This document shows, piece after piece, positions 21,324 to 27,009 of a DNA stretch of 64,000 nucleotides. This DNA comes from a virus, in IMG/VR virus record IMGVR_UViG_3300030380_006811, positions 55,076-119,075 of that record; one strand, given 5' to 3'. Within the stretch, counting starts at the first letter, position 1. The number at the start of each line of letters is the position of its first letter. The position numbers and the translations under genes were made by a program. The notes under the pieces are model-generated. The model made no database searches and was not told the DNA's origin. It saw only the letters and a list, made by a program, of their open reading frames with translations.

Positions 21324-22589
21324 ATGAAAGAACTACACACATTTATAGAAGAAATGAGAGCTACAAGTAGTAGCACTGATAAAGTACAAATAATTAAGGA
21401 AGCAAGTCCATTTGTACATAAAGCATTAGAGTATACTTATAATCCGTTTAAGCAATTCTATGTTACAAGTAAAACCTGTAAGAAAAACCCACATTTATTT
21501 GGGGGTGATGCCATTGATTGTTTTGAGATATTAGATAAATTAATGAATAGGGAAGTTACTGGGCATGATGCTATTAAATTAGTTAACACTTATGCTAACC
21601 TAAAAGGTTATAAAGATTTAATTTATAAAATTATAGATAAAAATTTAGATATTAGAGCTGGGGATAAAGTTATTAATAAAGCAATTCCCAATTTAATACC
21701 AACATTTTCAGTTGCATTAGCTAAAGAATATGATGGTAAATGTGATTGGCAAAATGATACTTGGTGGGCATCAAGAAAATTAGATGGTGTTAGATGTTTG
21801 GCAGTAGTTAATTATGAAGGTGAATGTACACTTTATTCTAGAATGGGTAAAGAATTAACTACACTAAATAAGGTTAAAGAAGCGATTGAAGCAACAGGTA
21901 TTATTAATACTGTATTTGATGGTGAAATTTGTTTAATTGATGAAAATGGAAATGAAGATTTTCAAGGTGTAATGAAACAATTAAGACGTAAAGATCACCA
22001 AATTGAAAATCCTGCTTATATGATATTTGATATGATTCATAAACCTAATTTTGATAACCAAAAAGGAGGTCCTATATTAAGTGAAAGATTAGCAGCATTA
22101 AGAGGATTTTTAACAGGTAGATATATTACAACTAATATTTTACGTTATACAGATCAATTCCAAATAACAGATGGTAGACACTTTGATAAATGGGGTCAAA
22201 TAGCAACTGATAATAATTGGGAAGGATTTATGATACGTAAAGATGTTAGTTATGAAGGTAAACGTACTAAAAATTTGCTTAAAGTAAAGAAATTTTATGA
22301 TGCTGAATATGAAGTAATTGATTTTGATATTGATGATCACGAAGTAGTTAGAGATGGTAAATCTGAAACACTTAAAATGTTATCTCAAGTATGGATTGAA
22401 CATAAGGGGCATAAAGTAAAAGTTGGTAGTGGTTGGACCCAAGATCAACGTTTACAGTATATGGATGGTTCAATTGTAGGTAAAGTAATTACTGTTCAAT
22501 ATTTTGAAGAAACTAAAAATGATAAAGGTGGAATTAGTTTAAGATTCCCAACTGTAAAAATAGTACATGGAGATAAGAGAGAAGTGTAG
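21324..22589 (+). CDS. ATP-dependent DNA ligase
   Basis: RKLDGVR (KxDG), FDGEI, IFD, EGFMIR, LLKVK, VGSG, SLRFP. Confidence 0.95.
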   Translation: MKELHTFIEEMRATSSSTDKVQIIKEASPFVHKALEYTYNPFKQFYVTSKTCKKNPHLFGGDAIDCFEILDKLMNREVTGHDAIKLVNTYANLKGYKDLIYKIIDKNLDIRAGDKVINKAIPNLIPTFSVALAKEYDGKCDWQNDTWWASRKLDGVRCLAVVNYEGECTLYSRMGKELTTLNKVKEAIEATGIINTVFDGEICLIDENGNEDFQGVMKQLRRKDHQIENPAYMIFDMIHKPNFDNQKGGPILSERLAALRGFLTGRYITTNILRYTDQFQITDGRHFDKWGQIATDNNWEGFMIRKDVSYEGKRTKNLLKVKKFYDAEYEVIDFDIDDHEVVRDGKSETLKMLSQVWIEHKGHKVKVGSGWTQDQRLQYMDGSIVGKVITVQYFEETKNDKGGISLRFPTVKIVHGDKREV

Positions 22590-23333: not shown

Positions 23334-23340
23334 CTTTTAT

Positions 23341-23350
23341 ATATTTATAA
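23341..23350 (+). promoter_or_regulatory. Putative late promoter
   Basis: ATATTTATAA shortly upstream of ATG. Confidence 0.7.
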
Positions 23351-23375
23351 CAAAATATTAATTAATAAATTTATT

Positions 23376-23654
23376 ATGTTAAAAATTATAGGTCTTATAG
23401 TAGTAGTTTTAGTAATAGGAGCAGCCGTTTATTATTTCGGTTTCTATAAAAGAGGCAAAATTAATGATAGAGATGGAGATTTAATACCTGATGAGGTTGA
23501 AGATGCAGTTGAAGAAGCTAAAAAGAGAGTACAATCAGTAAAAGTAGAAGCTAAACAGGTTGGAAAAGCAGTAAAAGCAGCATCTAAAGAAATCAAAGAT
23601 GTAGTTAAAGCAGCTAAAGGAAAAAAAAGAAGAGGTAGAAAACCTAAAAAATAA
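23376..23654 (+). CDS. Membrane-anchored protein with DxDxD motif and basic tail
   Basis: N-terminal TM helix, DRDGDLIPD, K/R-rich C-terminus; late-type motif upstream. Confidence 0.7.
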   Translation: MLKIIGLIVVVLVIGAAVYYFGFYKRGKINDRDGDLIPDEVEDAVEEAKKRVQSVKVEAKQVGKAVKAASKEIKDVVKAAKGKKRRGRKPKK

Positions 23655-23657
23655 AAT

Positions 23658-24740
23658 ATGAGTAAATATAACTTATCAGAATTACTTACTGAAGTAGCAG
23701 GAGGTAGAATTGGAACATTAGAAATTTCGGCTAGAGATTTAGTTCGTAAAATGGAAGATCTTGAAGATAAAGGTGTTCGAGTAGAACGTTTTGATGGTCT
23801 TTCTCCTGATGGTAAAACATATATTGAATTCCATGTTCACCCAATAAGAAAATATGATGAAGATTATTCATTTTCAGTTTACGACTTTAAATTTGGATTT
23901 GATCCTATGAGCCCAGAACATTCTGATCAAGAATACCCATTTAGTGTAGGTGGTAGATCATCAGCACGTGATAGTGCAGAAACAACACTTAGAGGAGGAG
24001 ATATGGGGTTTGAGCTTAAAGAAGCTAAAGAAGAACCTAGAGATGGAGTTAAAAGTGCTGCAGCTAAACTAGGAATGAAACCAAGTCATGTAAAAGAAAA
24101 CATGTCTAAAAAAGATACATTAAAGAAAGAAATGATGATTCATGTTGACCAATTAATAGATGGTAACATAGACATGAACGACTTTATGAATGTAGTAGAA
24201 GATATAATGGATGAATTAAATCCAGGGGATGATTTCGAACAAGAAGAATTTACAGCTATCCCTGAAGAAGATTCAATGAAAGAAGATTTAGATGATTTGA
24301 ATGATGACGAATATGATGATGGTCCTGATGGTAAATTTGTTAACGAACTAGATAATACTTTAAATGTTGATAAAGTTGCCTCACCAGATGCTAAAGCACA
24401 TGATTACGGAGCTGAAATTAAAGGTATATCTGATGAAGATGATACTGAAGAAAAGTATGCTCATGGGATGGTATTACCATTAGAAGAAGATTCAATTGAT
24501 GAAGCAGATAATATGGAAGTTGTTGCGTTATTAAATAATATAAGAAAGCATTTAAATGATAAATTTGATCGCAAATATAGTAAATCAGAAATCGATTTAT
24601 ACATGGATTCTTTAAAAAGAGATATTGAACGTGGTGAATTTGATGGTGTTGAATCTATTTCAATGGAAGACCATGAAGAGGATTTTGAAAATTACATTGC
24701 TGATAAATCATTACAAGAACATTTTAAAAGATTTTTATAA
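23658..24740 (+). CDS. Highly acidic protein, possible internal head protein
   Basis: D/E-rich; repeated LTE/LKE/LEE/LQE motifs like T4 gp21 cleavage sites; late-type motif upstream. Confidence 0.55.
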   Translation: MSKYNLSELLTEVAGGRIGTLEISARDLVRKMEDLEDKGVRVERFDGLSPDGKTYIEFHVHPIRKYDEDYSFSVYDFKFGFDPMSPEHSDQEYPFSVGGRSSARDSAETTLRGGDMGFELKEAKEEPRDGVKSAAAKLGMKPSHVKENMSKKDTLKKEMMIHVDQLIDGNIDMNDFMNVVEDIMDELNPGDDFEQEEFTAIPEEDSMKEDLDDLNDDEYDDGPDGKFVNELDNTLNVDKVASPDAKAHDYGAEIKGISDEDDTEEKYAHGMVLPLEEDSIDEADNMEVVALLNNIRKHLNDKFDRKYSKSEIDLYMDSLKRDIERGEFDGVESISMEDHEEDFENYIADKSLQEHFKRFL

Positions 24741-24753
24741 TAAAATCTATTTT

Positions 24754-25016
24754 GCCCGCTTTTCCGGGCCTGTAAAGTGGGCGTTATGCGGAGATTATTG
24801 CACGCCCTTGAAAAATGCTAGATTAAAACTCTTCACCCATATTTATGGTTGATTTGTTTTTTTCAAACATTTTTCAAAAGGTTACTTGCTGTCAGTTAGG
24901 CTGAGTCCGTGTTTAATTGGCATGGGACCTTGAGTAACCCCAGTGTTGACAGCGCTTAGGACGCCTACAAATACAGGCCCTCAAATACAGAAAGGAACCT
25001 CACGGTTCCTTTTCTG
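24754..25016 (+). ncRNA. Candidate structured non-coding RNA (multi-stem, pseudoknotted)
   Basis: GC-rich island with closing stem 24766-74/24972-80, several internal helices, G-U pairs favouring + strand, terminator at the end. Confidence 0.6.
24988..25016 (+). terminator. Intrinsic terminator
   Basis: CAGAAAGGAACC-TCAC-GGTTCCTTTTCTG. Confidence 0.8.
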
Positions 25017-25076
25017 ATTCTAAAATTTGTATTTTTATTAGTTGTATATATTTATTATTGTATTTACCCAAATCTT

Positions 25077-25421
25077 ATGAAAATAGATATAATTGGTTTT
25101 AGATTACCAACGGCTACCCCTGATCCTACAAGACATCCTTCTTGTGGTTGGGTTGCTATCTGTAATGATAAAGAAATTGGTTGGTGTAATATGACCTTCT
25201 TACCTAATAATGTATTAAAACTTGAAGATGCATTTATACATCCAGACTATAGAGGTAAAGGAATATATAAACAATTATGGAATAAACGTTATGATTATAT
25301 TCAGGAGCACTTTAGTAATTACAAATTAATAGCTTACTGTAAACCAACTACACTAGAATTTTATAAAAAACAGGGGTTTATTGTAAAAGAAACTATAACT
25401 CTTGTTGAGAAGCCCGCGTAA
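25077..25421 (+). CDS. GNAT-family acetyltransferase
   Basis: FIHPDYRGKGIY, FYKKQGF. Confidence 0.85.
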   Translation: MKIDIIGFRLPTATPDPTRHPSCGWVAICNDKEIGWCNMTFLPNNVLKLEDAFIHPDYRGKGIYKQLWNKRYDYIQEHFSNYKLIAYCKPTTLEFYKKQGFIVKETITLVEKPA

Positions 25422-25494: not shown

Positions 25495-26298
25495 ATGTCA
25501 AATATAGTAAAAATAAAAAGAGGTCGTCCAAGTAAAAAAGTTGGTAAAATTGTAAAAAGATTTAAGCCAACTACTATGAAAATGGATGATTTTAAATTCG
25601 ATCCCCAATTATTCATTCCTATGAAAACAGGTACTAAAATTGATAATTTACTTTCAAGTGAAGGTGGAATGATGAAAGGTACTAATGTTGCATTTGTAGG
25701 AGATCCTGGTGTTGGTAAAACTACGGTTTTATTAGATATGCTTGCTAATATGCAGAATAATGGTAATAAAGTATTATTTATATCAGGTGAGATGACTCAG
25801 ATTGATATGGTAGGAATGGTTAAAAGATTTCCTAAATTTGGTCAATTACCTATTTTATTTATGGGTGATTTTATTGAAAATGATCCACTTGTTATTTTGA
25901 AATCTATTCTTCATGAAGGATGGGATTCAGTTCTTGTAGATTCATTTGCTGAGCTTGCAGTTGCTGTTCAAGATTTTCATGGTGGTACTATGAAAAACGC
26001 TGAAACTCAATTACTAAATTTATTTGAAAAACATAATAAAGCTGAAAATCAAAGTGGTAAAAATACTAACTTTATGATCATTCAGCAGGTTACTAAAGGT
26101 GGTGAGTTTGCTGGTAGTAACCGATTTAAACACATGATTACCGCAATGGCTCATATTAAATTTCAACCTGAAGGTGGTAGAGCTATTTGGTTTAGTAAAA
26201 ACCGAAGAGGTGGTGAAATGAATAAATTATTCTTTAGTTTAGATGCTAGAAATCACGTAGGATGGTTATTCACCCAGCCATTAAATTTAATGGGATAA
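25495..26298 (+). CDS. RecA-superfamily ATPase, RadA/Sms-like core
   Basis: GDPGVGKT, LFISGE, VLVDS, QVTKGGEFAG, KNRRG (KNRFG-like). Confidence 0.8.
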   Translation: MSNIVKIKRGRPSKKVGKIVKRFKPTTMKMDDFKFDPQLFIPMKTGTKIDNLLSSEGGMMKGTNVAFVGDPGVGKTTVLLDMLANMQNNGNKVLFISGEMTQIDMVGMVKRFPKFGQLPILFMGDFIENDPLVILKSILHEGWDSVLVDSFAELAVAVQDFHGGTMKNAETQLLNLFEKHNKAENQSGKNTNFMIIQQVTKGGEFAGSNRFKHMITAMAHIKFQPEGGRAIWFSKNRRGGEMNKLFFSLDARNHVGWLFTQPLNLMG

Positions 26299-26349: not shown

Positions 26350-26496
26350 ATGAACGAACAATTTATTAAAGCAATTACAATTGCAGTAGACAAAAAAATG
26401 ATTACTATGTCTCAAGGGTTTGAAATTATTAGAGAACAAAGTGAGGAGCGTAGTAAAGTTGTTAACGAAACTATAGGTTTCAATCAAAAAAGATAG
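26350..26496 (+). CDS. Hypothetical protein, 48 aa
   Basis: Follows promoter and TAAGGTTATG start motif. Confidence 0.65.
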   Translation: MNEQFIKAITIAVDKKMITMSQGFEIIREQSEERSKVVNETIGFNQKR

Positions 26497-26498
26497 TT

Positions 26499-26726
26499 AT
26501 GATAGTAGAAACTATAGAAGATGGATGGGATTGCGAACCAAAACTAAATCTCGCAGTTGAAGCAATTGAAAAGTGTGATCACTTTAAATATGAAATTAAA
26601 AATTGTGTACGTGAATCTGAATTAGATTATATGGTATATGAAATGATTGATTTTCTTAAAGAAGCAATTGACGAATTAAAGTCAATTGACACTAATCAAG
26701 AATTTAAAACAGTAGAAGATGAATAA
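26499..26726 (+). CDS. Hypothetical protein
   Basis: ORF in dense early cluster. Confidence 0.65.
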   Translation: MIVETIEDGWDCEPKLNLAVEAIEKCDHFKYEIKNCVRESELDYMVYEMIDFLKEAIDELKSIDTNQEFKTVEDE

Positions 26727-27009
26727 AACATTTAATGATTTAAAATTTAAAGTACACCCTGTTACTAAAAAAGGGATACATGCATCACTTGAGCTGAAAC
26801 CTAATGTGTTTATCTCAGTTGTAGCTGGTGAAGGTTTTTATAGTGGTGGTAAAAATGGAGTTAGAGGTCCAGTTACTAAATTGGAAGAAGCTACTACATT
26901 TGAAGTTGCTATTATAGATGAAAATTTACCTGATGATCAGCAAGAATGGGATGTTTTAGGATGGCAATCAAGAGATGATATTAATAAATTAATGATTGAT
27001 AATGGATAA
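26719..27009 (+). CDS. Hypothetical protein
   Basis: SVVAG...YS...FEVAI...DVLGW pattern of small phage proteins. Confidence 0.65.
   Translation: MNKTFNDLKFKVHPVTKKGIHASLELKPNVFISVVAGEGFYSGGKNGVRGPVTKLEEATTFEVAIIDENLPDDQQEWDVLGWQSRDDINKLMIDNG

Follow-up and report, generated by a model that had tools for sequence, protein, structure and literature searches.

Directly after the stop codon of a very acidic gene, virus record IMGVR_UViG_3300030380_006811 carries an element of about 215 nt that is real, is present in ocean RNA libraries and is strongly folded. We propose that it yields a stable plus-strand RNA, derived from the 3' end of an operon and closed by a long rod, whose core acts in trans; taken as a whole, we give this reading about an even chance of being right. 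Coordinates are those of the window, that is, the whole 64,000-nt stretch that was analysed, which forms the last 64 kb of a record of 119,075 bases with a G+C content of 30.6% (0.306) and an estimated completeness of 73%.

The stretch is present in 20 sequencing runs from 13 studies, and six of these runs are RNA runs. Four runs were compared over 24450-25250: the metatranscriptomes X13 and X16, which belong to different studies (P8 and P10), and the runs X9 and X10. In X13, one 202-nt contig (record 9, depth 22) lies wholly on 24789-24980 with no loose ends, and in X16 a fragment covering 24816-24945 stands between adapter sequences. Over the flanking genes the depth of both is zero within 24450-25250, which argues against DNA carry-over. 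The contigs carry no strand, end or level information, and the exact halt of the X13 contig at the last base of the closing rod (24980) hints weakly at a 3' end; its start at 24789 lies inside the proposed RNA and 3' of the 5' strands of the rod. A preliminary description of this DNA, made from the letters of the sequence, had suggested a structural RNA, and this suggestion is borne out by a fold with a z score of -5.81 and by RNA libraries from two studies that contain the element without its flanks.

Probable transcription unit and neighbouring genes

The genes and signals around the element, which would occupy about 24766-24980, are as follows.

21324-22589, plus strand: ligase gene, a neighbour of the element
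Downstream of the ligase gene, plus strand: HNH-like ORF, a further neighbour
23338-23348, plus strand: promoter-like motif TATATATTTAT, the exact motif occurring four times in the window, always on the plus strand
23376-23654, plus strand: ORF with no assigned function, in the putative unit starting near 23338
23658-24740, plus strand: very acidic, hypervariable ORF of 360 aa, directly upstream of the element
24991-25012, strand not given: hairpin terminator AAAGGAACC/GGTTCCTTT, flagged by the scan on the minus strand only and read on the plus strand by eye
25045-25055, plus strand: promoter-like motif TATATATTTAT of the next unit, that of the GNAT gene at 25077-25421
25077-25421, plus strand: GNAT acetyltransferase gene (114 aa), downstream of the element
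25495-26298, plus strand: DnaB/RecA-like ATPase gene, downstream of the GNAT gene

Two ORFs without assigned function stand between the HNH-like ORF and the region of the acidic ORF, all on the plus strand, and Pfam and PHROGs returned nothing informative for the two upstream ORFs. No close isolated phage was found; the ligase and the RecA/DnaB-like ATPase match their nearest isolates at less than 40% protein identity. Within the hypervariable acidic ORF, a 120-nt block (24105-24224) recurs at 90–93% identity in seven contigs (L002-L008), six of which (L003-L008) match the window between 22000 and 27000 almost nowhere else, L006 also matching at 26483-26733; the block may be a mobile or recombining gene segment or, equally, a conserved domain. 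ARAGORN found no standard tRNA across the whole genome. With introns allowed and a relaxed score threshold (-i -ps90), and only then, a tRNA-like gene was detected at G000:C1:48185-48296, 6,780-6,891 bases before the start of the window, with intact acceptor, D and T arms and an anticodon loop enlarged by about 37 bases.

Two recurring motifs in this genome look like promoters. TATATATTTAT precedes the GNAT gene in related contigs as well as here. The second, TTCGTATATTTAC, lies upstream of early genes at eight sites with at most one mismatch (3585, 18742, 20851, 25445, 26320, 32653, 36438 and 36804), exclusively on the plus strand; at several, TTTGG stands some 20 nt further upstream, and the motif precedes AAAGGTTATG starts by about 30–45 nt. 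TTCGTATATTTAC is probably a phage early promoter of the Bacteroidota type, and we infer that both motifs act as promoters. Neither occurs within 23365-25027, even at two mismatches, and the scan called no terminator on the plus strand from the acidic ORF to the element. Since a recurring promoter motif is missing directly upstream, the RNA probably represents an operon's stable 3' end. The TATATATTTAT copy at 23338 probably starts a unit made of the ORF at 23376-23654, the ORF at 23658-24740 and the RNA, and, most simply, a single transcript would run from about 23338 up to the hairpin at 24991-25012 and have the element as its 3' portion. RNA contigs confined to the element, together with a missing upstream promoter motif, are the outcome of our test for a 3'-UTR-derived RNA, in which the contigs come without ends or strand. 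The strong terminator that had been claimed does not hold as stated: the scanning tool flagged 24991-25012 on the minus strand only, and the plus strand, read by eye, has GGAACC/GGUUCC there followed by UUUUCUGAUU.

Translation offers no explanation of the element. No ORF of at least 25 aa with a start codon lies inside it, save an out-of-frame run-on from the upstream gene, and a coding role was rejected, this run-on being the sole longer ORF. Frameshifting or readthrough of the upstream gene was likewise rejected, since relatives without the element have the identical gene end. AAGGTTA in the element was considered as an early-gene start context and dropped, this 7-mer occurring 22 times on the plus strand.

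Predicted fold of the element

The plus strand of 24750-25020 folds at -94.7 kcal/mol (z -5.81), which none of 200 shuffles equalled, and its minus strand at -89.6 kcal/mol (z -5.39). The plus strand appears to be the transcribed one, to judge from this better energy, from the 10 G-U pairs among the 74 pairs of its minimum free energy (MFE) structure, and from the orientation of all neighbouring ORFs and all promoter-like motifs, which lie on the plus strand. The GC-rich island that had been noted is there, with a G+C of 0.44-0.50 in 100-nt windows against 0.306 for the genome, and every pairing listed in the preliminary description, including the hairpin at 24905-28, is found in the sequence. 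The parts of the element are these.

24754-24769, plus strand: leader hairpin GCCCG/CGGGC, chosen when the 5' half is folded alone and overlapping the 5' strand of P1
24766-74/24972-80, plus strand: P1, a perfect 9-bp inverted repeat, ensemble probability 0.99
24777-85/24960-68, plus strand: P1b, GUGGGCGUU with GACGCCUAC, 9 bp, ensemble probability 0.96, absent from the preliminary description
24786-24807, plus strand: junction segment holding ACGCCC, the 3' strand of an alternative hairpin (24779-84/24802-07)
24808-24877, plus strand: P3, a long AU-rich arm whose base (24808-17/24868-77) has probability 0.97
24819-24855, plus strand: tip of P3, hypervariable by allele comparison
24853-63, plus strand: U-tract in P3, read from the sequence
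24880-87/24932-39, plus strand: helix A (24880-86/24933-39 in the preliminary description), probability 0.70, enclosing the inner hairpin 24905-28, in the GC-rich core
24888-95/24946-53, plus strand: helix B, crossing A as a candidate H-type pseudoknot, a 7-bp perfect repeat with a last G-U pair, probability 0.19
24897-901/24963-67, plus strand: helix C, a pairing present in the sequence, ensemble probability 0.0
24960-24980, plus strand: 3' strands of P1b and P1, the X13 contig stopping at 24980

P1 and P1b together form an 18-bp closing rod with a 2x3 internal loop. The AU-rich arm alone (24806-24879) has a z score of -5.61, whereas the domain of crossing helices alone (24878-24960) has one of -0.67, with 49 of 200 shuffles folding equally well; the fold signal stems from the 18-bp rod and the AU-rich arm, not from the pseudoknot domain. 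A tandem 14-nt direct repeat, GCCTACAAATACAG followed by GCCCTCAAATACAG, runs across the 3' end of P1 at 24963-24990.

Folded alone, the 5' half (z -2.42) yields the leader hairpin GCCCG/CGGGC (24754-69) and the hairpin 24779/24807, both competitors of the rod; the second has a probability of 0.005 in the full-length ensemble. The hairpin 24754-62/24774-82, previously put forward as a competitor of the closing stem, also exists as a pairing, with one G-U, and adds another competitor for the 5' strand of P1. Since two local hairpins are favoured over it in the 5' half, the rod may fail to form in vivo. In the folding model these hairpins would have to open before the rod could close, and we regard this kinetic problem as a real uncertainty.

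The preliminary description had centred on three mutually crossing helices, and this picture shrinks to one candidate. Helices A, B and C all exist as pairings, and A crossed by B is plausible, but the much more probable P1b (0.96) excludes C, and two of the three would need the loss of a much stronger nested helix. Six perfect helices of at least 7 bp are present, against 2.2 ± 1.6 in shuffles, and 20 of 500 shuffles reach six, so that one or two of them, for example the 7-bp helix B, could be due to chance. Before any pseudoknot penalty the rough energy estimates are -79.7 kcal/mol for the rod with A and B and -80.7 for the full earlier model, against -77.6 for the nested fold; thermodynamics cannot choose between these folds. 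As an H-type pseudoknot, A and B would have a first loop of 1 nt and a last loop of 6 nt, presumably a sterically possible arrangement if judged by the geometry of the T2 gene 32 pseudoknot. Of the crossing pairs only the A/B pseudoknot remains plausible, as an unproven candidate.

Natural alleles and related contigs

Natural variants of the element differ mainly at the tip of P3. Allele structures were read by hand from tables of contig differences. The allele common to X13 and X9 has seven substitutions and ten inserted bases, all within 24819-24849, and outside this tip X13 is identical over 24789-24980. Record 13 of X9 (24637-25021) carries the X13 tip, with about three further differences listed or implied outside it; it appears to come from an almost identical phage in which the hairpin tip has been swapped. 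In record 3 of X10, of whose 38 differences 8, in the element, are listed, the tip is 9 nt shorter, one more base is lost at 24869 and TTT is replaced by AGC at 24853-55; elsewhere in the element it differs by 24775 A>T, at a base that the rod model leaves unpaired, and by 24947 T>C and 24984 A>T. X16 represents another allele, about 10 nt longer among the differences listed.

Despite these changes to its letters, the tip keeps a hairpin next to the U-tract in all three reconstructed alleles (reference, X13/X9 and X10). The reference hairpin pairs 24833-40 with 24845-52 with one mismatch. In X10 a CUUCAC stem pairs with GUGAAG, two of the pairs (24831-G and 24832-A) being newly made by the AGC change, and in X13/X9 a new UGAUCG/CGAUCA stem sits atop the kept pairs 24833-52 and 24834-51. 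This compensation-like pattern, the sole evidence of its kind here, appears to support the upper part of the arm P3. Only the tip of P3 varies widely. P1, P1b and A are invariant among the alleles compared, with no listed change in the region of helix A in X13, X9 or X10, and this invariance bears neither for nor against those helices. Helix B has one breaking change: 24947 T>C in X10 disrupts its pair A24894-U24947, which counts against the multi-pseudoknot claim. As for covariation, the homologue hunt found no diverged homologues for P1, P1b, A or B.

The region from the ligase to the ATPase is mosaic among related contigs, and the element is absent from them. In all 25 relatives printed, a short motif and a terminator stand where the element would be: the gene end ...FKRFM and its stop are followed by GTGCAGGTGCAC or GCAGGTACAC, the terminator AGAGCGCATTAGCGCTCTTTTTTT, TATATATTTAT and the GNAT gene. 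In some relatives a different gene, or a small ORF on the reverse strand, takes this place. In L066, which comes from a contig of 139 kb, the acidic gene is nearly identical to that of the window over its final 200 nt, yet the short version follows. A separate observation concerns the approximately 100 nt upstream of the GNAT gene in L062-L087 (for example L066:1410-1500), where different upstream genes have in common the ...FKRFM gene end, the GTGCAGGTGCAC palindrome, an identical terminator and TATATATTTAT; by its sequence this site looks like a conserved module boundary for cargo exchange. Record 12 of X9, a DNA contig of 1,448 nt with a depth of 55, joins 24689 to 25092 through 188 other letters and, on sequence, appears to be a third version of the cargo site, with 24690-25091 replaced. 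The short version in relatives and the 188-letter replacement in X9 lead us to regard the element as a cassette in a variable cargo site.

Homologue searches gave the same picture, within collections that may lack records very near the window, which makes the following negative results weaker. Blastn and megablast against 50,697 phage records found no homologue, nor did nhmmer and blastn when run on 9 loci and later on 54, and the GNAT protein used alone as a query in viral contigs led to no homologue of the element. Exact core patterns had no match in viral and metagenome contig collections, and an 18-mer had four chance matches in a genome contig collection, none of which fits the covariance model. 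This model, R1, matched none of 54 viral loci, none of 20 whole related viral records, where two AU-hairpin noise matches (E about 0.05-0.07) were the only output, and none of 62 GNAT-bearing metagenome loci. In 151 Flavobacteriaceae genomes its single match (26.5 bits) is an AU-rich stretch plus a terminator hairpin, and BLAST on 401 Flavobacteriaceae genomes gave at most 41 bits among the matches listed, nearly all to the AT-rich arm.

Competing readings and known RNA classes

The account that we favour would run as follows. The stretch at about 24766-24980 would be an accessory cassette placed between the stop codon of the acidic gene and the terminator. Lacking a recurring promoter motif of its own, it would be made as the 3'-terminal part of the transcript beginning near 23338, and the RNA would accumulate as a stable fragment closed by the 18-bp bipartite rod of P1 and P1b. 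From this rod would extend an AU-rich arm of 70 nt, with a hypervariable tip that forms a hairpin in every reconstructed allele, and a GC-rich, unchanging core of about 80 nt with helix A, its inner hairpin and possibly pseudoknot B. The released RNA may then act in trans during infection, as a protein-binding scaffold or decoy with the core as its binding surface, and the variable tip may be a peripheral arm whose changes are tolerated, or it may confer specificity. Action in trans is a guess to which we commit, in a record (119 kb, 73% complete) that lacks TROVE, RVT_1 and RtcB partner genes.

An unlikely, though by no means negligible, alternative is that the element works in cis as a 3'-end module that protects or processes the upstream mRNA, as an exonuclease barrier or insulator, the RNA in the libraries being a remnant resistant to decay. 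It occupies the site of the relatives' short hairpin motif and terminator, has no promoter motif of its own, and owes its strongest features to simple long helices, all of which would suit such a module. However, 215 nt with an unchanging GC-rich core exceeds what end protection needs, for which relatives use about 50 nt, and among the listed alleles the core stays identical in every letter, whereas the tip differs.

We find it improbable that the element acts at the level of DNA, as a MITE-like insertion, a recombination boundary or a replication signal that is transcribed through its location in an operon. Inverted repeats of some 20 bp at its ends (P1 and P1b), a central palindrome, two strands that fold almost equally well and a variable cargo site adjoining replication genes (the ligase and the DnaB/RecA-like ATPase) would fit this reading, but the genome has a single copy and no relative carries one, there is no visible target-site duplication, pairs that are imperfect turn out as G-U on the plus strand, and the RNA-library contigs lie on the element and not on its flanks. 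A MITE-like element in the strict sense was rejected, the inverted repeats being the only one of its features present, with a single copy, none in relatives and no duplication at the borders. Similarly improbable, in our estimate, is that the element belongs to a new class of phage accessory RNAs, abundant enough for metatranscriptome assembly, in which an unchanging and possibly pseudoknotted scaffold bears a hairpin tip, exchanged among phages that are nearly identical in other respects, as a specificity determinant under diversifying selection, the tip serving as a decoy or guide against a variable host or rival factor.

It is very doubtful that the element comprises two units, with the tip and the U-tract at 24853-63 as an internal terminator or attenuator that ends a 5' RNA of about 100 nt and a 3' domain that is separate or conditional, like a switch. 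A hairpin abuts the U-tract in the reference, X13/X9 and X10 alleles alike, an A-tract lies upstream, TTTTTCAA occurs twice, and the 5' half folds alone (z -2.42); yet RNA contigs from both X13 and X16 traverse the U-tract, no promoter motif follows it, and the scan called no plus-strand terminator there. Last comes the multi-pseudoknotted ribozyme or ligand-sensing RNA of the preliminary description, with A, B and C all formed, which we consider the least credible: its helices exist, its energy before penalty (-80.7 kcal/mol) is near the nested MFE (-77.6) and the core is unchanging among the listed alleles, but C and its companion hairpin require giving up P1b, no fold signal comes from the domain, a pair of B is lost through 24947 T>C, neither a ribozyme nor a riboswitch model gave a match, an RNA contig runs across the domain without a cut, and the downstream gene has its own promoter motif.

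The claim that the element belongs to no known family and is neither a tRNA nor a tmRNA proved sound. No Rfam 15 covariance model reached its gathering score in the whole window, and at E ≤ 10 only noise was returned for 24600-25150, the best being snoRNA or miRNA models at no more than 23 bits, with zero matches in 24872-24990. ARAGORN found no tRNA or tmRNA in the window or the genome, none of its 15 calls at -ps90 with introns fell on the element, and no T arm is visible by eye before the 3' strand of P1. A ribozyme is disfavoured by the X13 RNA contig, uncut through 24789-24980, and by the lack of a match to any ribozyme model, and a riboswitch by the promoter-like motif of the next gene (25045), which lies downstream of the terminator. 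A riboswitch in the 5' leader of the GNAT gene was rejected, relatives having the same gene and motif without the element. HDV-like ribozymes have a nested double pseudoknot of P1 and P2, P3 with its loop L3, P1.1, P4 and a G-U at the cleavage site. The crossing of A and B with a hairpin inside A is the likeness of the element to HDV-like and theta ribozymes, an order that we take to resemble their P1/P2/P3. In contrast, the element has only 6 nt between the 3' strands of A and B, hence no P4, and no G-U at the base of A; RNA contigs cross the would-be cleavage site at 24879/80, no model matches, and an HDV-like ribozyme was rejected. 6S RNA is a long rod with a large central bubble that mimics an open promoter; the predicted fold here is a rod that opens into a three-branch junction, no 6S model matches, and this candidate was also dropped.

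Among known systems, the reading of a stable RNA acting in trans recalls small RNAs derived from the 3' UTRs of bacterial and phage operons, CpxQ and SroC being reportedly examples. Like them, the element lies after the last stop codon, lacks a promoter motif of its own, ends near the operon terminator and appears to outlast its mRNA. It is, however, much larger and more ornate, its stable form seems to end at 24980, before the terminator, and a search of the phage genome gave no seed or target, the antisense matches being limited to AT-rich ones of 11–13 nt. The likely Bacteroidota host would presumably be without the usual Hfq context of such RNAs. The large ornate RNAs GOLLD and ROOL of Rfam, often found in phages and prophages, are likewise phage-borne, accessory, GC-rich relative to the genome and patchy in distribution, but exceed 500 nt, against about 215 nt here, and the element matches neither model. 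The phi29 pRNA, which we take to be Rfam RF00044, is also phage-encoded, of similar size and closed by a helix that pairs its 5' and 3' ends; the element, in contrast, has no Rfam match, and its phage, of at least 119 kb, is unrelated to phi29-like phages. The bacterial Y RNA YrlA, which works with Rsr/Ro60, is similar in size and in having a long end-to-end stem with a branched module, whereas the element has no Rfam match and no visible T-arm-like module, and the phage record has no TROVE gene. No description of this RNA appears in the titles and abstract openings of the papers that literature searches returned.

The element adds a new RNA family to a known kind, the phage-borne structured RNAs without known role. 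Stable phage RNAs other than tRNAs are few, and most are without known role; with its narrow distribution, this one is a well-documented orphan among many candidate phage RNAs. It is found in libraries from the sea, at a fast-changing cargo site and beside a hypervariable gene for an acidic protein, and its frozen core with a swapped hairpin tip is the pattern that selection on a specificity element would leave. A partner, if found, could reveal a new RNA-based means by which phages handle their hosts.
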